Below, piece by piece: positions 42,401 to 56,976 of a DNA stretch of 64,000 nt. The translations under genes and the position numbers were made by a program. Source of the stretch: Eubacteriales bacterium (GTDB lineage: Bacteria > Bacillota > Clostridia > Peptostreptococcales > Anaerovoracaceae); assembly GCA_028693645.1 (NCBI GenBank), contig JAQUUY010000001.1:30318-94317 (forward strand). The letters are read 5' to 3'. Position 1 is the first letter of the stretch, and every line of letters starts with the position of its first letter. The notes under the pieces are model-generated. The model had not been told where the DNA came from and ran no database searches. It worked only from the letters and a program-made list of their open reading frames with translations.

Positions 42401-42931
42401 CTCCTAAGCTATGCTCTCTATCCGAAGGTGTTTGAGGATTACCAAAAGAAACTCGTAAAAGAAGGATCCTTCCGTTATATGGGAAGCGACGTTTTCTTCC
42501 ATGGCCTTCGCGAAGGTGAAATCTGCGAGGTCAAGATAGCAGAAGGAAAAGTACTCGTCCTGAAATTAGTAGAAGTCGGCAGCCTCAACGAAGAAGGAAA
42601 CCGTTCTGTTGTCTTTGAAATCAACGGAAACAGAAGAGCGGCACAGATTAAAGATAAGAATGCCGAAAGAACTATGACCTTGCAAACGACTCTGCTTGCA
42701 GACACGGACGATCCTACACAGGTCGGAGCAAATATTTCCGGGAATGTAGTGAAAATCTTTGTCAAAGAGGGTGAACAAGTCGAAGAAGGACAACCGCTTG
42801 CTGTCTTGGAAGCGATGAAAATGGAAACCAATATTCTTTCCCCGATGAAAGGCATATTGAAAGAACTCTGTGTAAAAGAAGGCGCGCAGGTAGCTGCCGG
42901 CGAACTTGTAGCCAAACTTTCGTATGAGTAA
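39497..42931 (+). CDS. pyc: pyruvate carboxylase
   Basis: 1144 aa with biotin carboxylase, carboxyltransferase and biotinyl (EAMKMET) domains. TTG start after GGAGA. Confidence 0.98.
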   Translation: MKPFKRVLVANRGEIAIRVFRACKELGIRTVAIYSEEDQYALFRTKADESYKIGNGKSAVDAYLGIGEIIELAKAKGVDAIHPGYGFLSENTDFARLCEEAGIVFIGPTYEMMEQLGDKVTSKLVAAKVGVPTIPGVEKVIASEKEALEYAAFCGYPVMLKASAGGGGRGMRVVRDEKDLIAEFRSASSEAGKAFGIDAIFIEKYIEHPKHIEVQILGDNYGGLVHLYERDCSVQRRHQKVVEMSPALCLSEEQRQRICADALKIAGAVSYRNAGTVEFLLDQEGNHYFIEMNPRIQVEHTVSEMVTGIDIVQSQILIAQGYPLSSDKVNIKGQESIVPNGYSIQCRITTEDPENGFAPDTGTLDVYRTGSGFGIRLDGGNGFTGAKITPYYDSLLVKVTSWARTFEDAIEKSARALDEIKIKGVKTNIGFLLNVLNHPVFRAGQCNTGFIGEHPELFEIKASVDKELKLIRFLGEKAVNEHHENKPQFNIPYVPDLSDRGTKPGSKQLLDELGPKKLSSWILGQKQLLITDATMRDAQQSLMATRLRTIDMQRIAPAMSKLAGDLFSIELWGGATFDVAYRFLNESPWERLAVLRESIPNVMFQMLLRGANAVGYKNYPDNVVKRFIKEAAASGIDVFRIFDSLNWNEGMVVSIDEVLSQNKVAEVALCYTGDILDKSKNKYDLAYYVRKAKEIEKMGAHILCIKDMSSLLKPMAAYDLIKALKNEVSIPVHLHTHDTSGNGGATLMMAAMAGVDIVDAAFSSMAGLTSQPSLNSLVAALKNTERDTLLSQDDLQAISNYWSDVRPVYQQFESELKAGTAEIYKYEIPGGQYSNLKPQVESFGLGHKFEDVKEMFKNVNEMLGDIVKVTPSSKAVGDMSIFMVQNELTAENIYDKAKDMDFPDSIVSYFEGMMGQPEGGFPEKLQNLVLKGKTPITGRPGELLPDEDFDSIKEYLEKTYQIEANEQELLSYALYPKVFEDYQKKLVKEGSFRYMGSDVFFHGLREGEICEVKIAEGKVLVLKLVEVGSLNEEGNRSVVFEINGNRRAAQIKDKNAERTMTLQTTLLADTDDPTQVGANISGNVVKIFVKEGEQVEEGQPLAVLEAMKMETNILSPMKGILKELCVKEGAQVAAGELVAKLSYE

Positions 42932-43065: not shown

Positions 43066-43111
43066 ATAACAAACAAGCGAATTCGATGTTCCGAACAGCG
43101 AGGTGATAGAA

Positions 43112-44248
43112 ATGGAAAAAATTAAGCTTCTAATCATAAGTGAGGATTCGGAATATGCGGTGGCTCTCAGCAGATTACTCAGCATAAAATATGATTGCTT
43201 TCGTATTGACATCAAATCAGGAAAAACGAACACTGCAAGTATCGAAAAATGCAGATCCGCATTCTATGATTTGCTCCTTTATGACAGGTGCGATGAGGCT
43301 TATGAGCAAAGTCTTTTATCTGAAGATCAATCAAAATGTGTATTACTTACAGAGGAAGAATCCTTCTTCAGGAAAGACGAAAATGACGAAGATTCAAATA
43401 ATAAGAAAGATAAAAAACAAGAGCAACTGATTTATAAGTATGCCGGAGCAGACAAAATTGCTTCTGATTTACAGCTGTTTTATATGGAAGCAACGGGAAA
43501 AACGAAAAAAACTACTTTGGGGACGGGGGCGGAGCTAATCTTGTTTTCAGGAGCGGCCGGAAATGTCGGAAAAACAGCGCTCTGCATTGCAACTGCAAGG
43601 GAATTGGCTGAATTTCATAGAAAAAAAGTACTGCTCTTGTCTTTTGAATCCCCCGAATCGTTTGGTTTTTATTTAGACGAAGAAGGGAAAGGTCGAGGGT
43701 TAAATGAATACTTATACTACTTGTTTGCAAAATATAAACAATATTCTCCGATTGATCCCGCTGCCTTTCTGACGCATGATCGATTTGCCGTTGACTACTT
43801 CCGCCCCGGGAACAGTATAAATGAACTCATCGAGCTGAGCCTTGCCGATTTGAGAGATTTATTAGCTTCCGTAGCCAACTTCAAAGCGTATGAATATATT
43901 TGCTGTGATGTGTCTTGTTTCTCATTAAAAAAGTATTTTGAACTCTTATCTTTGGCAGACAGAATCATTCATATCGACGATGGTTCTCCTCTTTCCATTT
44001 ACAAAAATGAGGCGCTGCTGAATGCATACTATTTAGCGACGGAGGAAGAGAATTCTGATCGCCTGATAAGGGTGAGGAACAAATGGCAAGAACGAAAGGC
44101 GTCTTCTGTTGAAAACAATATAGATTTGTTTATCGAATATGATCCGGAAAGCTTTCGAGCGACGACAGTCGGTCTTGAAATCGAAATGGACCGGTGTTTT
44201 GGATTGGGGGTCAAAAAGCTTGCAGAAAAAATCCGAAGACAGATATGA
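43112..44248 (+). CDS. TadZ/CpaE-like pilus assembly protein (receiver-like N-domain plus ParA/MinD-like ATPase domain)
   Basis: 378 aa from ATG 43112 (RBS GAGGTG). The N-terminus KIKLLIISEDSEY...YDLLLYD resembles a receiver fold. The P-loop is FSGAAGNVGKTALC. The gene sits directly before cpaF. Confidence 0.6.
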   Translation: MEKIKLLIISEDSEYAVALSRLLSIKYDCFRIDIKSGKTNTASIEKCRSAFYDLLLYDRCDEAYEQSLLSEDQSKCVLLTEEESFFRKDENDEDSNNKKDKKQEQLIYKYAGADKIASDLQLFYMEATGKTKKTTLGTGAELILFSGAAGNVGKTALCIATARELAEFHRKKVLLLSFESPESFGFYLDEEGKGRGLNEYLYYLFAKYKQYSPIDPAAFLTHDRFAVDYFRPGNSINELIELSLADLRDLLASVANFKAYEYICCDVSCFSLKKYFELLSLADRIIHIDDGSPLSIYKNEALLNAYYLATEEENSDRLIRVRNKWQERKASSVENNIDLFIEYDPESFRATTVGLEIEMDRCFGLGVKKLAEKIRRQI

Positions 44249-45443
44249 TACCGTAAGTACGCTAAAAGAAATAACCGAAAATGTAAGAGCTGTTATCAAC
44301 AGCAAAGATCAAAAATTGACCGATGCGGAAGTACTTGATTTGATCGAAGCCTTTGTTTTAAAAGACAGTAGAACCCAAGTCTGCTCTTATCAAACGAAAG
44401 GTGATGTGATTAGCAGCGTTTTTAATGCAACAAGAAAAGAATTAGACCTTTTACAACCCTATGCCGATGATCGAGAAGTCAGTGAAATCATGGTCAATGG
44501 AATTGAAGGTATTTTTATTGAAAAGAAAGGAAAGATTGAACGTCTTTCGAAGAATTTCGAGACAAAAGAAGAACTAGAAGAAATTATAAGACGTTTGGCC
44601 GGAAAGGTTCATCGAGAGATAAATGAGCTGAACCCCATTGTTGATGCAAGAATGGAAGATGGCTCAAGAATTCATGCCGTTTACAAAAATGTTGCGCTCA
44701 ATGGACCAATTCTAACGATTCGGCGTTTCCCAGAAAAGAAGATTAGTATGAGCGAGCTCATTGAATATGGAAGTATCACAGAGGAAGCGGCTTTGTTTCT
44801 TAAGCAATTAGTCATTGCGGGCTATAATATCTTCATCTCCGGAGGAACCAGCTCAGGGAAAACGACGTTTCTCAATGTGTTGTCGAATTATATTCCCAAA
44901 GAAGAACGTGTCATCGTCATAGAAGATTCAGCGGAGCTTCAGATTATGGAAATAGAAAACCTTGTGCGAATGGAAAGCAGAAATGCAAATGTACAAGGCA
45001 AAGGAGAAGTTTCAATCCGACAATTGATTAAAGCAAGCTTAAGAATGCGTCCGGATCGCATCATTGTTGGTGAAGTGAGAGGGCCGGAAGTCCTTGATAT
45101 GATACAGGCGATGAATACCGGGCATGATGGATCTCTCTCAACCGGCCATGGTAATTCACCGGTTGGGATGCTGACAAGACTTGAAACGATGTATCTGATG
45201 GCAGCAGAATTTCCGATTGAAGCTATCAGAAATCAAATTGCAGAAGCCATTGATATCATTGTGCACCTCGGTAGAACCCCGGACCGTGGAAGAAAAGTTC
45301 TTGAAATCATTGAACTGGCCGGAATCGAAAATGGAAAAATCAGAGTGAATACCTTGTTTTCTTATACGAATGCCGCAGGCTTAAAAGCCACAGGGAACAA
45401 GCTTTCAAATCAAAGCAAACTGGAACGAAAGGGGATGATATAA
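44139..45443 (+). CDS. cpaF: CpaF/TadA family secretion ATPase
   Basis: Walker A GGTSSGKTTFLN, Walker B VIVIEDSAEL, and a His box GHDGSLSTGHGNS. The start is uncertain: ATG 44139 overlaps the upstream gene by 110 nt, and TTG 44220 follows GGGGG. Confidence 0.9.
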   Translation: MIRKAFERRQSVLKSKWTGVLDWGSKSLQKKSEDRYDTVSTLKEITENVRAVINSKDQKLTDAEVLDLIEAFVLKDSRTQVCSYQTKGDVISSVFNATRKELDLLQPYADDREVSEIMVNGIEGIFIEKKGKIERLSKNFETKEELEEIIRRLAGKVHREINELNPIVDARMEDGSRIHAVYKNVALNGPILTIRRFPEKKISMSELIEYGSITEEAALFLKQLVIAGYNIFISGGTSSGKTTFLNVLSNYIPKEERVIVIEDSAELQIMEIENLVRMESRNANVQGKGEVSIRQLIKASLRMRPDRIIVGEVRGPEVLDMIQAMNTGHDGSLSTGHGNSPVGMLTRLETMYLMAAEFPIEAIRNQIAEAIDIIVHLGRTPDRGRKVLEIIELAGIENGKIRVNTLFSYTNAAGLKATGNKLSNQSKLERKGMI

Positions 45444-45445
45444 GG

Positions 45446-46189
45446 ATGCCTACGTATGATCGATACGTGCTTTCCAAACAAGAAAAACTAAGGTACTTTT
45501 GTATCTGTTGCCCGTTGATAAGCGGTATTTCTTATCTGTTTTATCATAGCATTATATTTTGTATTCTCTTGCCGCTCCTTTCGATACCGGGTCAGCGAAA
45601 GTACGAAGCGTACTTGATCAGCCGTCAAAAAAAAGAATTGTCAAAGCAATTCCGAGATCTTCTCTACTCACTCTCTGCTTCTTTTTCCGCATCAAAGCAG
45701 ATGAAAGAGGCATTGAAGGAATCTTTGCCGGTTTTACTACTCCTTTACGGAGAAAATTCACTCTTGATAAAAGAAATATCACAGATTGTCAGAAAAATGG
45801 AAGAAAGTCGTGATTCGGAAGAATCCTTGCTCTCAGATTTCGCAGAAAGAAGCGCCGATGGAGAAATTCAAAGTTTTGTTGATGTCTATCTTATCTGCAG
45901 AAAATCCGGTGGCAATCTGATACAAGTGATTTCAAAAACAGTGGAGGTATTGATTGAAAAACTGGACATCACTCGGGAAATACAAAAGATGACGGCGCAA
46001 AAACGTTTTGAATCAATGATTATCACGGCAATCCCGCTCTTAATGTTGCTCTTTCTTCAATGTTCCAGCCCTGATTTTACTGCCGTGCTTTATGAAACGC
46101 TCGCAGGTCGGCTGTTGATGACCCTTGCACTTTTGGGAACGGTAGTAGCTTCTTGTTGGAGCAGAAAAATTACGGAAATTGACTTTTAG
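45446..46189 (+). CDS. tadB: TadB-like type II secretion system F-family membrane protein
   Basis: 247 aa with an N-terminal TM helix, a cytoplasmic helical T2SSF-like domain and C-terminal TM helices. Lies 2 nt after cpaF. Confidence 0.7.
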   Translation: MPTYDRYVLSKQEKLRYFCICCPLISGISYLFYHSIIFCILLPLLSIPGQRKYEAYLISRQKKELSKQFRDLLYSLSASFSASKQMKEALKESLPVLLLLYGENSLLIKEISQIVRKMEESRDSEESLLSDFAERSADGEIQSFVDVYLICRKSGGNLIQVISKTVEVLIEKLDITREIQKMTAQKRFESMIITAIPLLMLLFLQCSSPDFTAVLYETLAGRLLMTLALLGTVVASCWSRKITEIDF

Positions 46190-46219
46190 CGATATTCTTA
46201 GAAAAAGGGGGAATCTCAA

Positions 46220-47596
46220 TTGCTGAGAAGCAAGGCTTTTATAAAAAGCGGCATTCAATATTTTGAGAAGCTTGATCGATTTTTACCTTTTGATCTCTGC
46301 GGTAAAAAAGAAAAAATGCAGGAATTGTTCGGAAAGCGATATTGGCGAAAAGATACCGAAAGAATCGTCAAGGAAACTCGTCAAAAAACAGCGGGAGCAT
46401 ATCTGCTTCTTATCAGCCTTCTCCTTATTTTGATTTTTTTCTTTGCAATCTCTGCCTTGCAGCAAGGGGAAGAAGTGAAAACCATTTCAAGGCCGGAGTA
46501 TGGTGAACCGGTCAAAACGGAGCGGCTTTTCGCAAGAATGGAATATGACGGAAAAATTTTGGAGAAAGAAACAAAAGTAAAAGTGCTTCCGCAAGTTCGT
46601 TCAGTCCATGCAACGGAAAAAGCACTTGAACAATTTGAACAGGATTTGGAAATCAAAATTCTTGGGAAAAACAAAGATATCAAACACGTGTGCACGGATC
46701 TTTTCCTGTTTACAAAAGAAGAAGGAAGTGATGTCGCTATAGAATGGTTTTCCAATAAGCCGGAGTTACTTTCTCGAGAAGGAAAGGTTGATACGATTTT
46801 AGCCAAGGGGAAAGAACAAAATGTCGAATTAACAGCCGTGTATTCTTTGGGGGAGATAGAGAGAAAAATCACGTTTCCCGTTCATATTACGGATGGAGAG
46901 AAAGCAAATGATAAAACAACTTTAGAAGAGCGTCTGTCAAATGCAATCGAGAATGTTGAAGAAGGGCCGGCGGTCGGAACGCGCTTGACTTTGCCGAAAA
47001 CTCTTGGTGAAGAAGTCAGGATTCGTTGGATTGAAAAGGAAAAGAACCCTTTACCGGAATTGTTGCTGTTGTTCGTTGTTGTTTTTGGAATCATCTATCG
47101 TCTTCGTTATAAAACCGCAGAAAATGAAGTGAAAACGGATCAGAAAGCAATTTTAAATGATCTTCCCGATTTTACGAATAAATTGCTTCTCCTTCTTTCT
47201 GCAGGGCTTGTAAGCGAATCTGCGATTCGGAAAATCACAACTGATTATAGAAAACGGTGTTCAACAAAACAAAAACCCTTGTACGAAGGCTTTTGTGAGA
47301 TTGAACAACGAATGCAGTTGACAAATGCATCGTTTCTAAAAGAATTTAGTGATTTTGCTCAAAAAAGCGGAGTTAGAGAGCTGATTCGTTTGCAGACAAT
47401 CATTTCCGAAAACATGTACATTGGAAACAGTTTGAGTGAAAAACTTGAAACAGAAGCAGCAATGCTTTGGTTTTATAAGAAGAAGAGCGTGGAGGAAAGA
47501 GGGCAACTTGCGGAAACAAAACTCACATTTCCGCTGTTACTTCAGCTCATAATTCTAATGGTGATTACGTTGGCACCTGTGTTTTTGAAGCTTTAG
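46220..47596 (+). CDS. tadC: TadC-like T2SSF-family membrane protein with a large extracytoplasmic insertion
   Basis: 458 aa. TM helix at aa 58-80, a roughly 200-aa soluble domain, TM helix at aa 279-293, then a T2SSF-like helical domain (ILNDLPDFTNKLLLLLSAGL...) and a C-terminal TM helix. TTG start after AGGGGG. Confidence 0.65.
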   Translation: MLRSKAFIKSGIQYFEKLDRFLPFDLCGKKEKMQELFGKRYWRKDTERIVKETRQKTAGAYLLLISLLLILIFFFAISALQQGEEVKTISRPEYGEPVKTERLFARMEYDGKILEKETKVKVLPQVRSVHATEKALEQFEQDLEIKILGKNKDIKHVCTDLFLFTKEEGSDVAIEWFSNKPELLSREGKVDTILAKGKEQNVELTAVYSLGEIERKITFPVHITDGEKANDKTTLEERLSNAIENVEEGPAVGTRLTLPKTLGEEVRIRWIEKEKNPLPELLLLFVVVFGIIYRLRYKTAENEVKTDQKAILNDLPDFTNKLLLLLSAGLVSESAIRKITTDYRKRCSTKQKPLYEGFCEIEQRMQLTNASFLKEFSDFAQKSGVRELIRLQTIISENMYIGNSLSEKLETEAAMLWFYKKKSVEERGQLAETKLTFPLLLQLIILMVITLAPVFLKL

Positions 47597-47605
47597 GACA
47601 TTGCT

Positions 47606-47809
47606 TTGAATAGTAAAATAAGAAGGGAGAAGTACGGACTCGTAGGTACCGTGCATGAAAAAATGATGAAAAACAGCAAAAAAGGAATGGAAATGGTGCA
47701 GGTGGCAATTTTGATTGCTATTGCAGTGGCTTTAGGATTGATTTTCAGAGAGAGGATAATGGACTTTGTTGATGCGACATTTGACGGGCTGTCCTCTTCG
47801 GGATTTTAA
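47606..47809 (+). CDS. flp: Flp-type (type IVb/class III signal) pilin
   Basis: A short basic leader ...NSKKG is followed by MEMVQVAILIAIAVALGLIF and a short tail, giving a mature size of about 40 aa. The start is ambiguous (TTG 47606 or ATG 47663). Confidence 0.7.
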   Translation: MNSKIRREKYGLVGTVHEKMMKNSKKGMEMVQVAILIAIAVALGLIFRERIMDFVDATFDGLSSSGF

Positions 47810-48090
47810 TGAGTTGCTGCTTTCGTTTCTTCTCTCACTGTAAGACTAAAAAAGGAGCGGTTATGATTGAGGCAGCGTTAGTATTACCTCTGTCGATTTT
47901 TCTTATAATGGGGTTATTTACTCTTGCGCTTCATTATCATGAACAAGCAGTGCAACAAACAGAGGAGTATTGTCAAGTGAGACAAGAAGCAAAGGTAGAG
48001 GGAAAAACCGATTTGCGTGAAGCAGAATTTGTTACGAGAATTGATTTCCTGCAAGAAGTGGTCGACGGAAAGGAAAAGAAAAGTGATTAA
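47809..48090 (+). CDS. TadE-like pseudopilin
   Basis: 93 aa. TKKG/AVMIEAALVLPLSIFL matches the TadE N-terminal motif with Glu at +5. TAATG overlap with flp. Confidence 0.65.
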   Translation: MSCCFRFFSHCKTKKGAVMIEAALVLPLSIFLIMGLFTLALHYHEQAVQQTEEYCQVRQEAKVEGKTDLREAEFVTRIDFLQEVVDGKEKKSD

Positions 48091-49414
48091 GAATAACAAA
48101 AAAGGATCGGTACCTGTCTTTTTGGGAACCATCTTGCTTTCTTTTCTTCTCGTAGTAGCGATTTTGATGGAATCAGCAGTCGGTATCGTAGGGAGAGGGT
48201 ATGCAGATGGTGTTTTGAATCTGGCAGGACGTTCGATCCTTTCCGAATATGACAGACATTTGAAGGAAGACTATGGACTGTTTGCTGTTTTGATGGACGC
48301 AGAAGAAGCAGAAAAAAAGCTGACTTATTATTCGAATGAAAGCTTTGACTCTCATTTTGGATATACCGATTTGTTTTCACTTTCTCTCGAAGAGGTGAGG
48401 GTTGATTTTTCAAGTTACCCATTGAGCAATCCCGATCGCCTTGAAAAACAGATTATGGAATACATGGAGTTCCGAATCGTAAGTGAGGGAATCACGGCAC
48501 TTGATCTGTTGGAAAATCCAAAAAAACTTGATTGCTACTGCGATAAAAAAACAGAAGCAAAGAGCAGCGCCTTGAAAGTGGAGCGTGATTTAAAAAATCA
48601 ACAGATAATAAAGGGGCTTCCTTCCCATGTACTCAAAAATGAGTTTGATTTCACTTCGGCTCTTCCTCAGAACTTTAATATGAAGAAACTGCTTCATATT
48701 ACGAAAGATAGCATCAGTTTGAACCTCTATATACTAAAATGTTTTCGCCATCAATTAGATGACGAAGATTGGAACAATACCTTTTTTGCAAACGAGGTCG
48801 AATATATTTTGTGTGGAAGTGAAAGTGACAGTCGAAACAGAACGCTTGTAAAAGCAAGCTTGCTTGTCTTGAGAACCGGAATTGATCTTGCCCATATTTA
48901 CACTGATCCTCTAAAACGCCAAAGTATTTTGACCGTTGCGGCACTTGTTTTCCCAGGAGCCGCTGCTCCGGCGGCAGCAATTTTGATTGCTATCGGATGG
49001 GCCGCAGCAGAAGCGGCGAATGACCTTGGGCGCCTTGCGAAAGGAGATCGTGTCCCTTTATATAAAACGACTGCTGATTGGATGATTGATCTGGACAGTC
49101 TTCTTGAGAAGAAAGAAGAAAAAACAACCATGAAGAGACAAACTGCCGGAATCGTTATTTTGAAACCGGAATCGACAGGTCTTGATTATGAAAATTATTT
49201 ATTCTTGCTACTTTGTTTTAAAAGCAGAGAAACAAAGCTGTTTCGAATTATGGATTTAATACAGATCAACATGAAAGGAAACTATTATTCCGATTTCCTC
49301 CTATCTCATTGTTACGGCGGAATCGATTTTGTTTGCCGTATTGAACGAAAAAACAGCTTCTTGCCATTCGGTTCCTTGCGAAAAGGAGTTTTTTATGAAA
49401 GTCATGTTTACTAA
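48083..49414 (+). CDS. TadG-like pilus-associated protein
   Basis: 443 aa from GTG 48083, which overlaps the upstream stop (GTGATTAA). The N-terminus NKKGSVPVFLGTILLSFLLVVAILMESAV resembles the TadG-type N-terminal helix, followed by a large soluble domain with an internal hydrophobic stretch. Confidence 0.6.
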   Translation: MIKNNKKGSVPVFLGTILLSFLLVVAILMESAVGIVGRGYADGVLNLAGRSILSEYDRHLKEDYGLFAVLMDAEEAEKKLTYYSNESFDSHFGYTDLFSLSLEEVRVDFSSYPLSNPDRLEKQIMEYMEFRIVSEGITALDLLENPKKLDCYCDKKTEAKSSALKVERDLKNQQIIKGLPSHVLKNEFDFTSALPQNFNMKKLLHITKDSISLNLYILKCFRHQLDDEDWNNTFFANEVEYILCGSESDSRNRTLVKASLLVLRTGIDLAHIYTDPLKRQSILTVAALVFPGAAAPAAAILIAIGWAAAEAANDLGRLAKGDRVPLYKTTADWMIDLDSLLEKKEEKTTMKRQTAGIVILKPESTGLDYENYLFLLLCFKSRETKLFRIMDLIQINMKGNYYSDFLLSHCYGGIDFVCRIERKNSFLPFGSLRKGVFYESHVY

Positions 49415-50222
49415 GTGGAGACGAAGAAAAAGGGGATCTGCTATCGTCGAGGCAGCTTTGTTTCTTCCATTTTTCCTTTTGGCTTTGCTTTCTCTGATCC
49501 TAATCATTCGTTTGGTGAGTGTAGAAGGAAGCATGATGGAAATCTGCACAAAAGAAGCGCAGATAGTAGCGAAGGAAGCATATTTAACGAATTTGCCGGA
49601 GATACCCGAGGGAGTTGAAAAAAACATCGTTGGTGGTTTGGCTCATGGGACGCTTATGAAGCTTCGTATACGCCAAGCGGTAGACAGTAAAGAGAAACTG
49701 CCCTTATCGGAGTTGCGGCTGCAGAGTTTCTTCTATTTGTTTTCGGCACATGAGACAGATTCGCTGATACGACCATCATTTACTTACCAAAGCAGCATTC
49801 CTTTGCCGGGCGGATTTGGGCGAACAATTAAATTTAAACGCGTCTTTTTGTTTCGTGCGTTTGTGGGATCTGTCGGCATGAATTCTGCAATGGGTTTTAC
49901 TGAAATGGAAAAAGAAGAAAGCTCCGAGCTGGTATCTATCTTTCCTCGTGCGGGGAAACGGTATCATAAAAAAAATTGCAAGGTAATTACTGTTTATCCG
50001 ATAGAAACCTTATTAACAAATGCAGTACAGCGGAAATACAGTCCATGTTCACTTTGCAAACCAAATGAGAACGCGTTTGGCAGCAAGGTGTATCTTTTTC
50101 CGGAAAGCGGTGAAGTTTTTCATCGTGAAAATTGTGTGCTTGTAAAACGCTATGTGACTGAAATTGAAAAACAGGAAGCAATCAAGAAAGGTTACAGTCC
50201 CTGTAAATTATGCGGAGGATGA
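49395..50222 (+). CDS. TadE-like pseudopilin fused to two C-terminal H-C-C-C zinc-binding modules
   Basis: 275 aa from ATG 49395 (RBS AAAGGAG). RKRG/SAIVEAALFLPFFLL has Glu at +5. The C-terminus carries YHKKNC-x22-YSPCSLC and FHRENC-x22-YSPCKLC. Confidence 0.6.
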   Translation: MKVMFTKWRRRKRGSAIVEAALFLPFFLLALLSLILIIRLVSVEGSMMEICTKEAQIVAKEAYLTNLPEIPEGVEKNIVGGLAHGTLMKLRIRQAVDSKEKLPLSELRLQSFFYLFSAHETDSLIRPSFTYQSSIPLPGGFGRTIKFKRVFLFRAFVGSVGMNSAMGFTEMEKEESSELVSIFPRAGKRYHKKNCKVITVYPIETLLTNAVQRKYSPCSLCKPNENAFGSKVYLFPESGEVFHRENCVLVKRYVTEIEKQEAIKKGYSPCKLCGG

Positions 50223-50223
50223 T

Positions 50224-50943
50224 ATGTTTAAGCTTGAGGAACTAAAGAAAGAAGAAATTGGCGGACGGCTTGTTTTGTCAATCGAAAACACGAAAGACTG
50301 GCCTCCGGTGTATCAGAAGCGAGTCTTGGAAAAAGGTTGCAAAGGGCTTTTGCAAATGACTTTTCTTGAGATCGAAGAGAATTGCAGGATTTACTATCAA
50401 GTGGATTCCTATAAACCATTCACGGATTACTTAGAGAGTTTGTTTTCGAACAAACGCGAACTTCACTCAAATCCAACAAGAGAAATCCTTCGTATTCTGA
50501 TAGATGTGCTGTCTTGTGTCTTAGATGCCGAAGATTGTTTGCTCTTTGTTGAAGCATTCGCCTTTAACAAGGATACCATCTTTGTCCATATTGATACGAA
50601 AGAAGTGCGGCTTGCCTATTTACCAACAACGAAAGCAGGGCAGACCGGCAATCCTTTTTTGAAAGAGCTGATTGAAGCAATCTCCAACCAATATCAGGAG
50701 GAACAATGGCAGTCTTGCGCTCAAGAATTGCTATGTGAAATCGAGCAAAAGAACAAAGGATCTCTTGAACTCATCAAATGGTTTAGAGAGAAAGCTCGAG
50801 ATTTGCATCTTCGTGGTTGGCCAAACGAAGAACTTGAAAGAAGTGTGGAGGGGGAAGTAGATAATTCCTTTGAAATCGCTGTCGATTGCCCAGAAAAAGC
50901 GGAGAAGAAAAGAAGCGTTTTCTCTTTTGATAAAAGAAAATAA
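50224..50943 (+). CDS. hypothetical soluble protein, last gene of the Tad-like operon
   Basis: 239 aa from ATG 50224 (RBS GGAGGA), starting 1 nt after the upstream stop. No TM helix and no motif recognised. Confidence 0.55.
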   Translation: MFKLEELKKEEIGGRLVLSIENTKDWPPVYQKRVLEKGCKGLLQMTFLEIEENCRIYYQVDSYKPFTDYLESLFSNKRELHSNPTREILRILIDVLSCVLDAEDCLLFVEAFAFNKDTIFVHIDTKEVRLAYLPTTKAGQTGNPFLKELIEAISNQYQEEQWQSCAQELLCEIEQKNKGSLELIKWFREKARDLHLRGWPNEELERSVEGEVDNSFEIAVDCPEKAEKKRSVFSFDKRK

Positions 50944-50992: not shown

Positions 50993-51160
50993 CTAACGAT
51001 CAGTTCTGACCTGTCTTCTTTCGTTCTTTTTTCTGTCTCTGCAATCCTTACATCTTTTTGGTTCGTTATCAAAACCTTTTTCCTTGTAGAACTCCTGCTC
51101 ACCTGCTGTAAACACGAATTCTGCGCCGCAATCCTGACATACGAGTGTTTTGTCTTCCAT
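50993..51160 (-). CDS. small zinc-ribbon protein (55 aa), not in the ORF track
   Basis: My translation: MEDKTLVCQDCGAEFVFTAGEQEFYKEKGFDNEPKRCKDCRDRKKNERRQVRTDR. RBS GGAGGA lies 10 nt upstream. CxxC...CxxC motif. Confidence 0.8.
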   Translation of the reverse strand: MEDKTLVCQDCGAEFVFTAGEQEFYKEKGFDNEPKRCKDCRDRKKNERRQVRTDR

Positions 51161-51424: not shown

Positions 51425-51453
51425 TTGTTATTTTTTGCTTGCAATGATATAAT
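51425..51453 (+). promoter_or_regulatory. sigma-A promoter for the 51.5-kb operon
   Basis: TTGTTA, a 17-nt spacer, then TATAAT. The -10 is embraced by the inverted repeat CTTGCA...TGCAAG. Confidence 0.55.
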
Positions 51454-51507: not shown

Positions 51508-52416
51508 ATGCTCGGATACATCGTTCCGGATAAGCCGGAATTAAAAATAAAAGAATATGATCTCTATTCCGGTTATTATTGTGGAATCTGCAAATCAATC
51601 GCAAGGAGATATGGGCAAGTGCCACGATTGGTATTGAACTACGATTCTGTTTTGCTTGCCTTGGTCATTTCTTCTCTTTTTGACGAACAGGAAAAGGCTT
51701 CGTTAGAACGTTGCCCCGTACATCCTTTGAAAAAAAGATTGATTGTGGCAGATCAACAGGGGATTGATTATGCAGCGGATATGATGCTCTTACTTGCTTA
51801 TTTTAAAGTACAAGATGATCTTCTCGATGAGCGGAATCTAAAGTCAGGGCTTGCTTCGTTTGCCTTGTCCGGAACTTTTAAAAAACTACTGAAAAAGTAT
51901 CCGGAGAAATGTATAATAGTCGAAGAAAACCTTGAAACGCTACATCGGCTGGAAAAAGAAAATTGTCCCTCTTTGGATCAAGCGGCAGAACCTTTTGCCA
52001 AATTGATGGAGGAAATTTTTGCAGAGAAAGAAGTTTCGCGAACAAAGGAAACCGGCGAAACGCTCAAACGAATCGGCTATCACATTGGGAAATGGATTTA
52101 CCTCATTGATGCGTTTGACGATATCGAAGAGAACAAGAAAAATGGCACGTACAATCCACTTCTTGCCGCTGAGATGAAACAAAAACACCTTGGCGAGAAA
52201 GCGGAAGCAACGAGTGTTGCAGGATTGCGAGAGGAGATACGACCGAGGATTGAATTCAATCTTCTCTACTATCTCGCAGAACTCGGTGCTGCTTGGGAAT
52301 CATTGGACAGAAAGAAAAATCAATCATTGATTGATAACATTATTTACATGGGGCTGTTACGAAAAACGGAACAGGTATTACAGAAAGGAACAACTAAAAA
52401 TGCAGAATCCGTATGA
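51508..52416 (+). CDS. uncharacterised protein (probably DUF5685-type) with isoprenoid-synthase-like Asp-rich motifs
   Basis: 302 aa. N-terminal YCGICKS...RCPVHP, plus QDDLLDE (aa ~102) and DAFDDIEENKKNGTYNPL (aa ~201). Composition suggests an all-helical protein. Confidence 0.6.
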   Translation: MLGYIVPDKPELKIKEYDLYSGYYCGICKSIARRYGQVPRLVLNYDSVLLALVISSLFDEQEKASLERCPVHPLKKRLIVADQQGIDYAADMMLLLAYFKVQDDLLDERNLKSGLASFALSGTFKKLLKKYPEKCIIVEENLETLHRLEKENCPSLDQAAEPFAKLMEEIFAEKEVSRTKETGETLKRIGYHIGKWIYLIDAFDDIEENKKNGTYNPLLAAEMKQKHLGEKAEATSVAGLREEIRPRIEFNLLYYLAELGAAWESLDRKKNQSLIDNIIYMGLLRKTEQVLQKGTTKNAESV

Positions 52417-52972
52417 GGTATTGGGAATCAAAGAGGGAGCAACAAAAGAAGAGATTAAAGCGGCTTATCGCGAACAGGTAAAGAAGTACCATCCGGATCG
52501 TCATCAAGACAATCCTTTGTACGAATTAGCCGAAGAAAAGCTTCAGGAAATCAATGAAGCATACGAAACGCTTACGAAAGATGGCGGAAACAGAACGTAT
52601 CGAAGCGGGACCGCCGGACCGGGTCAAACGCAAGATCTCCGCCAAGTGCGAGTATATATTGATAAGGGAAATCTGGGCGCAGCAGAAGCTGAATTGAATC
52701 GCAGTTCCATCAGAAACGCAGAGTGGTTTTATCTCTCTGGAATTTTATCGATGAGAAAAGGTTGGTATGATGATGCGATAAATAACATTCAGACAGCCTG
52801 CAGCATGGAACCTGCCAATTATGAATACCGAAATGCCATGAATAGCATGATGCAAACCTCGCAGGGCTACAGAACAACAGCCAACAATCGCGGTTACTCT
52901 AATTCGAATGATGAATTATGCAGAATGCTGCAATGTTATTGCTGTGCGGATGCACTTTGTGATTGTATGTAA
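52400..52972 (+). CDS. J-domain protein with a TPR-like middle and a C-terminal cysteine string
   Basis: 190 aa from ATG 52400. J domain YEVLGI...KKYHPDRH. The tail is CRMLQCYCCADALCDCM. Overlaps the upstream gene by 17 nt. Confidence 0.8.
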   Translation: MQNPYEVLGIKEGATKEEIKAAYREQVKKYHPDRHQDNPLYELAEEKLQEINEAYETLTKDGGNRTYRSGTAGPGQTQDLRQVRVYIDKGNLGAAEAELNRSSIRNAEWFYLSGILSMRKGWYDDAINNIQTACSMEPANYEYRNAMNSMMQTSQGYRTTANNRGYSNSNDELCRMLQCYCCADALCDCM

Positions 52973-53524: not shown

Positions 53525-54807
53525 TCCCCTTATCGACGCGGATGCGACCGACTGATCTGGATGGTTTTTACGGGCAAGAACACTTTATTTATAAAGGGTC
53601 CTTGCTTTATAATGCAATCAAAAATAAGACCTTTGATTCTGCGATTTTTTTTGGACCTTCCGGCACAGGCAAAACCACACTGGCGCGATTGATTGCGAAG
53701 GAGATGGATTCTGATTTTTATGAACTCAATGCTTCTACCTGTGGAATCAAAGAACTCAAAGAAATTCTTGAAAAAAGCAAGGATCGTTTATTTGGATTTC
53801 AAAAAGAACAGACCTATCTGTACATCGATGAATTTCATCGTTGGAATAAATTGCAACAGGATTCGCTTCTGAAAGCCTTGGAAGAGGGCATCGTTCGTTT
53901 TATCGGAAGCACAACAGAGAATCCATATTTCTCGGTCAACAATGCGATACTGAGCCGCGTTCGTTCTATTTACGAATTCAAAAAACTGAAACCCGAAGAC
54001 CTCTACCTGATTATGGTAAATGCCTTGCAGAACAAAGAAAGAGGCTTAGGAAAACAAGATCTTTCGTTTGAGAAAGAGGCACTTAGGGCACTTTCTGAAA
54101 TGTCAGCCGGTGATGCACGCATTGCCTTGGATACGCTTGGTTTTATCGCAGATAATCTGCCACTCGGGGCGCGGATTGAACTATCCACAATTGGCGAAGC
54201 GATGCAAAAGCAGACTCAATTCTATGACAAAAAAGAAGACAAATATAATTTGTTATCTGCACTTCAAAAGTCGATTAGAGGAAGTGATCCCGATGCGGCG
54301 ATTCATTATCTCGCCCGTCTTCTTGATGGAGGAGCAGACGTCGTGATGGTGGGGCGAAGGCTTCTGGTGATTGCCAGCGAAGATATCGGAATGGCATATC
54401 CTCAGGCAATCAGTATCGTCACTGCCTGCGTGCAGGCCGCACAAATGGTAGGCTTGCCGGAAGCAAGGATTAATCTTTCACAAGCGGTCATCCTATTGGC
54501 ATCTTGTCCTAAAAGCAATTCCACGATTATCGCAATTGATAGTGCCACAAACGATCTTCATAAGAAAAACATCGATGACATACCCAATCATTTGAAAGAT
54601 GCGCATTATGCAGGCGCTGAAAAAAGAGGGCTTGGATTGACGTATCAATACCCGCACGCCTTTGGTGGATATGTGAAACAACAATATCTGCCTGACAATC
54701 TTCACCGCGAAGGGGTGAGGTATTATGCACCGACAGAAAACGGAAAAGAAGGGTCCTTTAAAAGATTTCTTGAAAGTTTGAGAAAGAGTGTGGAACATGA
54801 AGATTAA
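53521..54807 (+). CDS. rarA: replication-associated recombination protein A
   Basis: 428 aa. Walker A GPSGTGKTTLA and a MgsA C-terminal domain. Confidence 0.93.
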   Translation: MIPLSTRMRPTDLDGFYGQEHFIYKGSLLYNAIKNKTFDSAIFFGPSGTGKTTLARLIAKEMDSDFYELNASTCGIKELKEILEKSKDRLFGFQKEQTYLYIDEFHRWNKLQQDSLLKALEEGIVRFIGSTTENPYFSVNNAILSRVRSIYEFKKLKPEDLYLIMVNALQNKERGLGKQDLSFEKEALRALSEMSAGDARIALDTLGFIADNLPLGARIELSTIGEAMQKQTQFYDKKEDKYNLLSALQKSIRGSDPDAAIHYLARLLDGGADVVMVGRRLLVIASEDIGMAYPQAISIVTACVQAAQMVGLPEARINLSQAVILLASCPKSNSTIIAIDSATNDLHKKNIDDIPNHLKDAHYAGAEKRGLGLTYQYPHAFGGYVKQQYLPDNLHREGVRYYAPTENGKEGSFKRFLESLRKSVEHED

Positions 54808-56908
54808 AATCGCGGAGCATGCGGGTTTTTGCTTTGGAGTAAAAGAAGCGTTGGAAAAAACCAAAAAAACGATTGAACAGAACAAAGGAAAAGATATTAA
54901 AATATATACCTGTGGACCTTTAATCCATAACCGGACGGTAACCGGAGAACTGCGTGAGCAAGGGGTGGTCGAAATCGAATCCCCCGCAGAAGCAGAACGG
55001 GGTTCTATCGTGATTGTGCGTTCTCATGGCGAACCGGAACGATTTTACCAACAAGCAAAAGACCGAGAACTTTGCATTGTAGATGCCACGTGTCCTTTTG
55101 TATCGAAAATTCATGATCTTGTGCGAGAAGCCTCCTTAAAAGGGCGTAATGTCATTGTTGTTGGTGATGCCACACATCCGGAAGTCATTGGAACGACAGG
55201 CTGGGCAGGAGATCATTGTCTTGTGATTGATACTCTCGAAATGGCAAAGAAAATAGAGTTGGATCATATCACGCTTGTTGCGCAGACGACGATTACCGAA
55301 GAATTATGGAAAAGCATTGCGGACTGTTTTATGAAAAACAAAGAAGATGTCATTGCGCTTCACACGATTTGCAATGCGACGACAGAACGGCAGAGAAGCT
55401 GCGAAAATCTTGCAAAAGAATCGGATGCTATGATTGTAATCGGTGATCCCAAAAGCGCGAATTCGACTAAACTTTACGAAATTGCATCTAAATACTGCGA
55501 AAAAACACATTTTGTAGACACTCCGGCAGATTTACCATTGAAAGAATTGGCAAAGTGCGATACAATAGGAGTTGCGGCAGGAGCTTCAACTCCTGAACGT
55601 ATAATTAAGGAGGTTATTGCTACCATGAGTGAAATTTTCACTGAAAAAGAATTAAAGTCCCAAGACGCTGCAGTAAATACCGCAGTCGAGGATGACGAAG
55701 AAGAAGAATTTAACATGATGCACGAGTTCATGGAACAGATCGATAAGTCTCTCAGATTGCCAAATCGCGGAGAAATCGTCGAAGGTGAAATCGTACAGGT
55801 CACAAGCAGGGAAATCGTTGTAAATCTCGGATGTAAAAAAGATGGCATCATTCCCAAAGATGAGCTCGTTCTCGAAGGTGAACAGGATCTAAACGTTCTT
55901 TATAAAGAAGGCGATGTGATTCAGGCAAAAGTCATCAAGACAGACGACGGCGACGGAAATATCCTTTTGTCGCGTAAAAAGCTCGAGGTCATAGAGCATT
56001 GGGACGAAATCAATGATGCACTTGACAATAAATTAGTTGTAAACGCGAAAGTCGTCAAAGAAGTCAAAGGCGGCGTCATCGCGATGTACAAAGAAGTCTC
56101 CGGCTTTATCCCGATGTCGCAGCTTTCCGACAAATTTGTCGAAAAAGCAGACGAATTCATTGGAAAGACATTGCCGGTCAAAGTCAGTCGTGTTGATCAA
56201 AAGAGAAACAAGGCTGTATTCTCACACAAAGCTTATCTTGCAGAAGAGAAGCAAAAGAAAGTCCAGGAAATCTGGGATGCTCTCAGTGTGGGAGATGTTG
56301 TTGAAGGTGTCGTAATGCGCTTTACCGATTACGGTGCGTTTGTAGACATCGGCGGACTTGACGGACTTCTTCATATTTCGGAAATTTCTTGGGGCAAGCT
56401 AAAGCACCCACAGGAAGCTCTTGAAATCGGAGAAAAAGTCCAGGTCAAAATCCTGTCAATGAACAGCGAAAAAGGAAAGATCTCGCTTGGTCTCAAGCAG
56501 AACCAACCGGAACCTTGGATGATTATCGATGAGAAATATCAAATCGGACAGGTCATTGAAGGCAAAGTAGTTCAGATCAAAGAATATGGTGCTTTTGTAG
56601 AACTCGAGCCGGGTCTTGATGGACTTGTACATATTTCGGAGATTGCTCACAAGCGTGTTACAAACATTGCTGATGAACTTACTGTCGGACAGGAAGTTCA
56701 GGCTAAGATCCTTGAAATCGACAAAGAGAGAAGAAGAATCAGTCTTTCTATCAAAGAAACCATTGAGCCTTCCCTTTTCGATGAAGCAGCAGAAACTGTT
56801 GAAAATGCAGTAGAAGCAGCAACAGATGCGGTGAAAGAAGTAGCTGAAACCGTAGCTGATAAAATCGAAGAGATCGTTGAAGATGTCAAAGAAAAGATCG
56901 AAGACTAG
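54797..56908 (+). CDS. ispH: bifunctional 4-hydroxy-3-methylbut-2-enyl diphosphate reductase / ribosomal protein S1 fusion
   Basis: The N-terminal ~280 aa is IspH (HAGFCFGV, conserved Cys). It is followed by four S1 repeats (GEIVEGEIV..., GDVVEGVV..., GQVIEGKVV...). Confidence 0.92.
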   Translation: MKIKIAEHAGFCFGVKEALEKTKKTIEQNKGKDIKIYTCGPLIHNRTVTGELREQGVVEIESPAEAERGSIVIVRSHGEPERFYQQAKDRELCIVDATCPFVSKIHDLVREASLKGRNVIVVGDATHPEVIGTTGWAGDHCLVIDTLEMAKKIELDHITLVAQTTITEELWKSIADCFMKNKEDVIALHTICNATTERQRSCENLAKESDAMIVIGDPKSANSTKLYEIASKYCEKTHFVDTPADLPLKELAKCDTIGVAAGASTPERIIKEVIATMSEIFTEKELKSQDAAVNTAVEDDEEEEFNMMHEFMEQIDKSLRLPNRGEIVEGEIVQVTSREIVVNLGCKKDGIIPKDELVLEGEQDLNVLYKEGDVIQAKVIKTDDGDGNILLSRKKLEVIEHWDEINDALDNKLVVNAKVVKEVKGGVIAMYKEVSGFIPMSQLSDKFVEKADEFIGKTLPVKVSRVDQKRNKAVFSHKAYLAEEKQKKVQEIWDALSVGDVVEGVVMRFTDYGAFVDIGGLDGLLHISEISWGKLKHPQEALEIGEKVQVKILSMNSEKGKISLGLKQNQPEPWMIIDEKYQIGQVIEGKVVQIKEYGAFVELEPGLDGLVHISEIAHKRVTNIADELTVGQEVQAKILEIDKERRRISLSIKETIEPSLFDEAAETVENAVEAATDAVKEVAETVADKIEEIVEDVKEKIED

Positions 56909-56928: not shown

Positions 56929-56976
56929 CGAGCTGCTTCGGCGAAGAGGAATTCTCTTCGTTGAAGCAGCTCTTTT
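56929..56976 (+). terminator. compound rho-independent terminator
   Basis: Outer stem GAGCTGCTTC/GAAGCAGCTC and inner stem CGAAGAG/CTCTTCG, followed by TTTT. Confidence 0.8.

Follow-up and report, generated by a model that had tools for sequence, protein, structure and literature searches.

What might a bacterial protein do that combines two aspartate-rich motifs with a cluster of N-terminal cysteines, and that belongs to a family without an assigned function? This question is raised by a gene in a 64,000-nucleotide (nt) stretch of DNA (the window) from an Eubacteriales bacterium of the Anaerovoracaceae (assembly GCA_028693645.1, contig JAQUUY010000001.1, positions 30,318-94,317 of the forward strand). 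An earlier reading of this stretch (hereinafter the original prediction) had singled out an open reading frame (ORF) at 51508-52416 on the plus strand as encoding an uncharacterized protein with squalene/phytoene synthase-like aspartate motifs and an additional metal site. The ORF is present as described, and codes for a 302-residue member of the catalogued family DUF5685 (Pfam: PF18937). Based on structural modeling, we re-describe this family as a divergent branch of the prenyl-synthase fold that bears a predicted metal site and is tied to a cysteine string.

Predicted fold and conserved residues of the DUF5685 domain

The window protein matches PF18937 over its full length (E=6e-91; 305.1 bits versus a cutoff of 26.7), with residues 1-289 covering model positions 1-272 of 272, and no NCBIfam model matched it. 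A word-indexed search recovered 1,002 homologues and an exhaustive profile search recovered 5,768 representatives (50% identity clusters) at E<=1e-3; every homologue retrieved has the DUF5685 domain. Carriers include many gut and environmental Clostridia, such as C. difficile, many Streptomyces, Amycolatopsis and related actinomycetes, and some Bacteroidota. The longer Clostridial members were inspected for domain fusions; there are none, and the added length is a loop insertion. The literature searched mentions DUF5685 a single time, among domains listed for hypothetical proteins of C. difficile, and never mentions PF18937; it held nothing relevant on bacterial cysteine-string J-proteins, CYSTM in Streptomyces or structure-based mining of terpene synthases.

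An AlphaFold2 (AF2) model of the window protein, built on 48 homologues (predicted local distance difference test score, pLDDT, 86.7; predicted template modeling score, pTM, 0.86), is all helix save for a β-hairpin (residues 63-81) that carries C69 and H72 at its tip. In a Foldseek search of the Protein Data Bank (PDB), the best 50 matches of this model are all trans-prenyl diphosphate synthases (of farnesyl, FPPS; octaprenyl, OPPS; geranylgeranyl, GGPPS; hexaprenyl, HexPPS; and solanesyl diphosphate, SPS) or MoeN5, with probability 1.00, E-values of 9e-4 to 2e-2 and template modeling (TM) scores up to 0.60 (3wjo_A, 5jfq_A); MoeN5 ranks second. A second AF2 model was made from an actinobacterial alignment for the Streptomyces rochei homologue P0316, which is 19% identical to the window protein, and has a pLDDT >90 across most of the domain. 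Its best 50 PDB matches are likewise only head-to-tail trans-prenyl diphosphate synthases or MoeN5, the latter being at the top (5b03_C, E 3e-4), with long-chain prenyl synthases also represented (2azj_A, target-normalized TM score, TMt, 0.69). Over both models the TM scores range from 0.56 to 0.69. Squalene/phytoene synthases and terpene cyclases are absent from the 50 best PDB matches of either model, as are α-α barrels of the farnesyltransferase/geranylgeranyltransferase (FTase/GGTase) type; CrtM and squalene synthase were not compared directly with the models.

Both aspartate motifs form the C-terminal ends of long helices (84-108 and 180-204), as do the first and second aspartate-rich motifs (FARM and SARM) of trans-prenyl synthases. 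Together, the models indicate that the fold is that of class I (ionization-type) isoprenoid diphosphate enzymes, with trans-prenyl diphosphate synthases and MoeN5 as the closest matches, and that the acidic motifs are placed where this fold holds the Mg2+ ions that bind and ionize the allylic diphosphate. The superfamily resemblance put forward in the original prediction is thus upheld by two independent models, the best 50 PDB matches of which are confined to enzymes of the isoprenoid-synthase fold. It had conceded that the resemblance would be coincidental if neither profile nor structural similarity to class I enzymes were found: on the profile side significance is not reached, and it is by virtue of the structural evidence that the resemblance stands.

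Conservation was assessed in a close set of 94 family representatives, which are 30-55% identical to the window protein, and in a wide, 58-sequence alignment of Clostridia, Actinobacteria and Bacteroidota, in which the members from the added phyla are 17-23% identical to it. The motifs themselves lie exactly where they had been reported, with QDDLLDE (Q102-E108) at nt 51811-51831 and DAFDDIEEN (D201-N209) at nt 52108-52134, and the distance between motifs 1 and 2, previously given as about 100 residues, is 98. In the close set G3, Y24, C25, C28, C69, D103, G194, D201, D205 and N216 are invariant (94/94), followed by D107 and E149 (93 each), A202 and D157 (90 each) and P217 (87); position 209 is D in 90 members and N in 4. 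Nine columns, namely the same residues without Y24, remain invariant in 58/58 sequences over three phyla, where D107, D209 and P217 are also conserved in at least 90%. Given that the second aspartate of each motif is variable (D104 in 65/94 and D204 in 67/94), the conserved cores are D-x3-D and D-x3-D-x3-D...N-P, and not strict DDxxD motifs; the i, i+4, i+8 spacing of motif 2 is like that of NSE/DTE motifs. The conserved core further includes several aromatic residues, i.e. Y24 (94), Y198 (92), F at position 49 (87), F163 (86) and W196 (80). Such invariance across the family and across phyla argues that the motifs are real and not chance occurrences.

At the sequence level the similarity is fainter. 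A Pfam scan of the 94 members at E<=10 showed no recurrent match to PF00494 or PF00348, the families named for comparison in the original prediction; profile-profile comparison, made with isoprenyl diphosphate synthases (IPPS) and not directly with PF00494, reached a probability of at most 4.2%. A single member of the 94 weakly matches DUF2600 (the YtpB large-terpene synthase family; E 0.002). Searches of PDB sequences with phmmer and hmmsearch, using the single protein or a profile of close homologues, gave only chance helical matches. With the three-phylum HMMER profile, the best natural match is 4lob_A, a polyprenyl synthetase (E 0.033), and another four IPPS chains fall below threshold; the designed helical repeat proteins that headed the list (E 1e-7) were discarded as low-complexity helix artefacts, and matches to IspH (E 0.36) were taken as chance. 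In hhalign comparisons of the family profile with IspB alone the E-value is 0.067, with IspB ranking third among ~115 unrelated proteins. A prenyl-synthase profile was assembled from 15 sequences, namely IspA and IspB of E. coli and 13 synthases encoded on plasmids; against it the Clostridial profile obtains Prob 0.9%, and the three-phylum profile Prob 4.2% and E 0.0099. Over both profiles the E-values are about 0.06-0.01, and a reversed-profile control gives 0.066. In view of the low probability and a reversed control that is nearly as good, we do not claim sequence homology.

The alignments from HMMER (4lob_A) and hhalign are nevertheless colinear, with motif 1 falling on FARM (K-l-x-D-D-x-x-D-E over L-x-H-D-D-x-x-D), motif 2 on SARM (G-x-x-x-G-R-W-I-Y-x-I-D-A-x-D-D over G-x-x-F-Q-x-x-D-D-x-x-D) and Y-N-P near the GK-x-T-x-P of prenyl synthases. 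Motif 2 reads D201-A-x-D-D205-x3-D209 instead of DDxxD, and in its alignment to SARM the register of the invariant aspartates differs. DUF5685 resembles the trans-isoprenyl diphosphate synthases (IspA, IspB, GGPPS, HexPPS; PF00348) in its all-α fold, in the placement of its aspartate-rich motifs at the ends of the helix D and helix H equivalents, and in a colinear alignment that includes G-x3-G-x6-D-x2-D-D and then [YW]-N-P versus GK-x-T-x-P. It differs from them in lacking a significant sequence match, in its shorter motif spacing, the extra β-hairpin, a predicted Cys3-X site and a cysteine-string partner. It is also unlike them in the isopentenyl diphosphate (IPP) site, whose motifs GGKRxR, RRG (after FARM), KT and FQ have no conserved counterparts in the family consensuses or in the IPPS alignments.

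The N-terminal elements YCGIC (C25, C28) and RCPVH (C69, H72), which had been read as an added metal site, are both present, and such a site is backed by three invariant cysteines, H72 not being invariant. Position 72 among the 94 members is H in 67, N in 15, S in 5 and K in 3. Actinobacterial members have no histidine at this position and instead display four invariant cysteines (C8, C25, C28, C73), of which Cys8 is a candidate fourth ligand. The predicted metal site is thus made up of three invariant cysteines and a lineage-variable fourth ligand, which is His72 in most Clostridia, and, judging by the sequence, may hold either Zn or an Fe-S center.

Cysteine strings in trans and in cis

In the window, the 3' end of the DUF5685 gene is overlapped by 17 nt by the ATG of a gene for a J-domain protein with a cysteine-string tail. 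We examined 82 related loci, comprising 80 from one genome-collection scan and those of Anaerovorax (L001) and Anoxybacterium (L002), and in 82/82 a J-protein gene directly follows DUF5685. The complete orthologs retain the HPD tripeptide in 80/80 cases, and these 80 proteins have 5-10 cysteines in their last 30 residues (median 7), against a median of 0 in the remainder of the protein. The pattern C-x-[DE]-x-x-C-x-C is present in 69/80 tails, and all 80 have a cysteine within the last four residues, most often as CxCx (61), xxCC (10) or Cxxx (6).

The same arrangement is seen in ten further Clostridial loci, where the family members are 30-34% identical and the surrounding genes are entirely different. 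A complete downstream J-protein with a cysteine-rich tail, usually overlapping DUF5685, is encoded at L083 and L084 (near-identical copies of one locus), L085, L086, L106 (Pusillibacter), L109, L110 and L112; at L087 and L111 a J-type ORF begins directly downstream and the contig ends before the tail. This directly downstream and usually overlapping position implies translational coupling of the two genes. The partner at L112 consists of a J domain and the cysteine string only, with no TPR. At L086 (4034-4672) a distant J-partner lacks the HPD tripeptide (YRTLRRKYEELRF) and keeps the TPR region and cysteine-rich tail, which suggests that stimulation of DnaK may be dispensable to the module in some lineages.

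Outside Clostridia the J gene is lacking, and in Actinobacteria and Bacteroidota the cysteine string is fused to DUF5685 itself. Of 120 actinobacterial DUF5685 proteins (360-560 aa), 111 finish with a linker rich in P and G, then the hydrophobic segment GCAVxxGLCCTCQxCC and lastly a Cys/Asp string, there being at least 12 cysteines in the last 60 residues. In the Bacteroidota branch, a 40-100-residue cysteine string follows the domain in 7/7 members. The DUF5685 neighborhoods of Streptomyces and Amycolatopsis have nothing in common; in Streptomyces rochei a SepF-family cell-division gene (L107:7263-7700) divergently adjoins DUF5685, and this is not conserved in Amycolatopsis (L108). Homology between the J-protein tails and the fused tails could not be demonstrated with a hidden Markov model (HMM): without composition correction, an HMM of the J-protein tails scores real tails at a median of 12.7 bits versus 3.1 for shuffled ones, which is a resemblance of pattern only. 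The coupling of DUF5685 to a cysteine string, whether in cis or in trans, is obligatory. That the string is attached in three different ways is better explained by a functional need than by one accident of history.

Gene neighborhoods in the window and at distant loci

Between a candidate promoter and the first strong plus-strand terminator (56930-56972), the window encodes, in order, DUF5685, the J-protein, a small membrane protein, an MgsA/RarA ATPase and an IspH-S1 fusion protein (features of the module in Table 1). The membrane protein is a frequent third member of the module: an ortholog directly follows the J gene in 72/82 of the related loci (tblastn), and also at L085, L110 and L112, and is absent at L083, L106 and L109. 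Nine orthologs yielded no Pfam or NCBIfam match even at E<=10.

Table 1. Coordinates of the DUF5685 gene, its partners and their predicted sites in the window
Feature	Position	Strand	Remarks
Sigma-70-like promoter candidate, TTGTTA-17 nt-TATAAT with TG extension	51425..51453	+	Consensus scan, 10/12 matches; pattern only; 55 nt upstream of start codon
DUF5685 gene	51508..52416	+	ATG start, 302 aa plus stop; predicted all-α isoprenoid-synthase-like fold
C25-G-I-C28, first two ligands of predicted Cys3-X metal site	51580..51591	+	In helix 14-35; C25 and C28 invariant in 94/94 and 58/58
C69-P-V-H72, tip of β-hairpin 63-81	51712..51723	+	C69 predicted third, invariant ligand; H72 predicted variable fourth; hairpin from DSSP
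Aspartate motif 1, D103-D-L-L-D107 (FARM-equivalent)	51814..51828	+	C-terminal end of helix 84-108; D103 invariant, D107 93/94; aligns to FARM DDxxD of IspB and 4lob_A
Aspartate motif 2, D201-A-F-D-D205-I-E-E-N209, then Y215-N216-P217 (SARM-equivalent)	52108..52158	+	C-terminal end of helix 180-204; aligns to SARM
J-domain partner gene, 190 aa	52400..52972	+	J domain (HPD), TPR-like region, Cys-string tail; Pfam DnaJ E=2e-19 plus weak TPR
Cys-string tail LCRMLQCYCCADALCDCM	52916..52969	+	6 Cys in last 18 residues, ending CDCM
Small polytopic membrane protein, 178 aa	52988..53524	+	No known family

The IspH-S1 gene (54788-56908, plus strand), three genes downstream of DUF5685, codes for a 706-aa protein that joins an IspH (LytB) domain to four RNA-binding domains of the S1 type. 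As it lies before the first strong terminator, it may be co-transcribed with DUF5685. Adjacency to IspH is shared by Anaerovorax (L001) and Anoxybacterium (L002), and is absent at distant DUF5685 loci. In Pusillibacter faecalis (L106, 637-1849 and 5586-5996), DUF5685 is preceded on its own strand by ispD and ispF, at a distance of ~4-5 kb, and a gene for an RseC-family (SoxR-reducing system) membrane protein is situated immediately upstream of it. With genes of the methylerythritol phosphate (MEP) pathway thus occurring near DUF5685 in two lineages only, we do not use this link as core evidence. A CDP-alcohol phosphatidyltransferase gene abuts the start of DUF5685 at L110 (2709-3245, 4-nt gap) and L112 (3004-3693, 1-nt overlap); the two metagenomic Clostridial contigs are unrelated, and the recurrence hints at a connection to membrane lipids.

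Just upstream of DUF5685, on the opposite strand (50993-51160), the window encodes a 55-aa zinc-ribbon protein (MEDKTLVCQDCGAEF...KRCKDCRDRKK); 55-aa genes at the same position in L001 and L002 are recorded as PF13451 (zf_Tbcl). Further upstream is a Tad/Flp-type pilus cluster (43103-50943, plus strand) with genes for a T2SSE ATPase, T2SSF, an aBig_2 protein, DUF5702, a TadE-like protein and DUF6382. An ORF at 49329-50222 (297 aa) ends in two cysteine-motif repeats (...KKNCKV...YSPCSLCKP... and ...RENCVL...YSPCKLCGG) that are weakly like the Ada zinc site. A full-length pyruvate carboxylase of 1,144 aa (39497-42931, plus strand), with biotin carboxylase, carboxyltransferase and biotinyl domains, is an ordinary housekeeping gene. 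Several multi-megabase "plasmid" records in PLSDB (NZ_OL790696.1, NZ_CP154629.1 and others) look chromosomal, e.g. one of 4.8 Mb from E. coli and one of 2.6 Mb from Acetoanaerobium; as they are apparently chromosomes, matches there are not to be read as plasmid-borne.

Candidate functions

Drawing on the predicted fold and the contextual connections described above, we tentatively propose that DUF5685 is a prenyl-diphosphate-dependent transferase that works on or with the cysteine string. In such a scheme, DUF5685 would bind a prenyl diphosphate (e.g. C10-C20) through Mg2+ held on the aspartate motifs. There being no recognizable IPP site, the prenyl cation probably goes to a nucleophile other than IPP, the likeliest being a cysteine-string thiolate, which the Cys3-X site might position or activate, Zn2+ playing the part it has in thiol-alkylating enzymes. 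In Clostridia, the product would be an S-prenylated, membrane-tethered J-protein that would tether the recruitment of DnaK to the membrane.

Several considerations favor the string as the target. It is the best candidate because it is the only universal partner of DUF5685. Further, the Clostridial cysteines reach the extreme C-terminus, just as CaaX, CXC and CC prenylation signals have a cysteine at or near the extreme C-terminus. Thiol-alkylating zinc enzymes, moreover, typically use cysteine-rich sites with an exchangeable ligand. Finally, there are precedents for the fold itself, since ComQ and MoeN5 are IPPS-fold enzymes that prenylate acceptors other than IPP. ComQ is the tryptophan prenyltransferase that modifies ComX, and the comX gene is overlapped by comQ. 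The comQ-comX pair offers the parallel of an enzyme gene overlapping a gene that bears a short C-terminal target region. MoeN5 (the moenomycin prenyltransferase) ranks first among the structural matches of the actinobacterial model and second for the window protein. The resemblance to MoeN5 is one of structure, and IPP motifs are lacking in DUF5685. Unlike MoeN5 and ComQ, the acceptor in the case of DUF5685 would be cysteine thiols, rather than an alkene or an indole.

There is also a functional analogy with eukaryotic FTase, GGTase-I and RabGGTase, in that the J-protein cysteines lie at positions -4/-2 (CxCx, 61/80) or -2/-1 (xxCC, 10/80) and the predicted metal site of DUF5685 is cysteine-rich and may be of the Zn type. 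However, the β subunit of these enzymes is an α-α barrel with a Zn site (Asp/Cys/His), paired with an α subunit of helical hairpins, as opposed to the IPPS bundle of DUF5685, and with so entirely different a fold DUF5685 is not a member of the FTase/GGTase family. In eukaryotes, Ydj1/DNAJA1 is a farnesylated DnaJ protein and DNAJC5 a palmitoylated cysteine-string protein. By analogy, a prenylated J-protein would be the bacterial counterpart of both, made by an enzyme of the ComQ/MoeN5 structural type and not of the eukaryotic farnesyltransferase type. We nevertheless regard the specific step, S-prenylation of the cysteine string by DUF5685, as unlikely in its own right, and are similarly doubtful of the corresponding assignment of DUF5685 as a protein-cysteine prenyltransferase on the prenyl-synthase fold that modifies its own tail in Actinobacteria and Bacteroidota and the J-protein tail in Clostridia.

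A number of observations weigh against a transferase acting on the string. The Pfam scan of the 94 members revealed no recurrent second family at E<=10, PF00494 and PF00348 included, and the profile similarity to prenyl synthases is not significant, the reversed control scoring nearly as high. An HMM of the J-protein tails found, under default bias filters, no significant match in the fused tails. Multi-turnover transferases are not usually fused to their own substrate, as DUF5685 would be in Actinobacteria and Bacteroidota, and strings of Cys, Asp and Gly also resemble metallothioneins. With four invariant cysteines, the actinobacterial site could just as well be structural, as a closed Zn or Fe-S center, as catalytic. 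Lastly, no isoprenoid gene is consistently nearby, IspH being found only in Anaerovoracaceae and ispD/ispF only in Pusillibacter.

The same fold and motif evidence would serve equally for an enzyme acting on small-molecule or lipid isoprenoids at the membrane, be it a synthase, a cyclase or a polyprenyl-diphosphate processor, with the cysteine string as an accessory module and not the substrate; this we consider somewhat unlikely. The string would then provide anchorage in the membrane, transport of metal or Fe-S, or a redox relay, either in cis or, in Clostridia, on a DnaK-recruiting J-protein. An anchoring role is suggested by the hydrophobic segment of the actinobacterial tails (GCAVxxGLCCTCQxCC), which is predicted to be helical (pLDDT 69-82), and by one member (P0327) that matches the Pfam CYSTM cysteine-rich transmembrane module; but Bacteroidota strings have no hydrophobic segment and are followed by charged coiled regions, which implies that a simple anchor role is not general. 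Membrane and lipid genes recur in the vicinity, as a polytopic membrane protein at most loci and as the CDP-alcohol phosphatidyltransferase at L110 and L112, and to these may be added IspH in the same putative transcription unit of the window and the ispD/ispF genes upstream in Pusillibacter. Against this, no biosynthetic neighbors are conserved across lineages, as exemplified by the dissimilar contexts in Streptomyces and Amycolatopsis. Three invariant cysteines and a variable fourth ligand would suit a [4Fe-4S] cluster with a substrate-binding iron, as is found in IspH and IspG, and many of the carriers are anaerobes. With regard to a cyclase in particular, a DDxxD motif on one helix, together with triad-like acidic residues at i, i+4, i+8 (D201/D205/D(N)209) on the opposing helix, is reminiscent of class I terpene cyclases; there is no cyclase among the 50 best structural matches and no Pfam terpene-synthase match. 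An accessory role also leaves unexplained the constant cysteine-richness of the string and the fact that in Clostridia the cysteines always reach the last four residues.

The composition of the strings, which are built of CxC, CC and CxxC units amid Asp, Gly, Asn and Lys, as is typical of metallothioneins, prompts the alternative that the system handles metals. On this view, the string would store or shuttle Zn, Cu, Cd or Fe-S in the manner of a metallothionein, and DUF5685 would bind metal through its invariant Asp and Cys residues for sensing, loading or regulation. The prenyl-synthase-like bundle would have been inherited only as a scaffold, of which non-catalytic relatives like NDUFAF6 are examples. 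Among chaperones, H. pylori HspA sets a precedent for a metal-binding Cys/His tail, and the statistically insignificant sequence similarity to true prenyl synthases is in keeping with such a scaffold. Some sources label the actinobacterial proteins "Regulatory protein", although this is only a database name. On the other side, the residues that are invariant coincide exactly with those binding Mg2+-diphosphate in the matching fold and occupy the corresponding helix ends, and the core is rich in conserved aromatics (Y24, W196, Y198, F163, F49), as in active sites that stabilize carbocations; we hold this alternative, too, to be unlikely.

That DUF5685 is a CrtM-type enzyme of head-to-head squalene/phytoene synthesis that carries an extra metal site, as the original prediction had it, is very improbable: it has two D-x3-D conserved cores (D103-x3-D107 and D201-x3-D205) in the pattern of such enzymes (the CrtM motifs being those given in that prediction) and the fold superfamily in common with them, but this pair is common to other class I enzymes and does not discriminate for PF00494, no squalene or phytoene synthase is among the 50 best structural matches of either model, no member matched PF00494, the motif spacing is 98 aa versus ~124 aa in CrtM, no carotenoid, hopanoid or squalene genes are nearby in any context examined, and the obligatory cysteine-string partner has no role in head-to-head condensation.

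Placement of DUF5685 in a fold with intact metal- and diphosphate-binding motifs, together with its coupling to a cysteine string, turns an anonymous domain into an enzyme-substrate hypothesis. Should the function lie instead in small terpenoids or in metal handling, the family would still open a new branch of function within a well-studied fold. Prenylation of the string, if it occurs, would give bacteria an endogenous route of protein lipidation beyond the Lgt/Lsp lipoproteins. Such S-prenylation of proteins would be the first system of its kind endogenous to bacteria, independent in origin of the eukaryotic farnesyl and geranylgeranyl transferases, and would yield a membrane-targeted J-domain co-chaperone of relevance to chaperone biology, Clostridial physiology and prenyltransferase enzymology.

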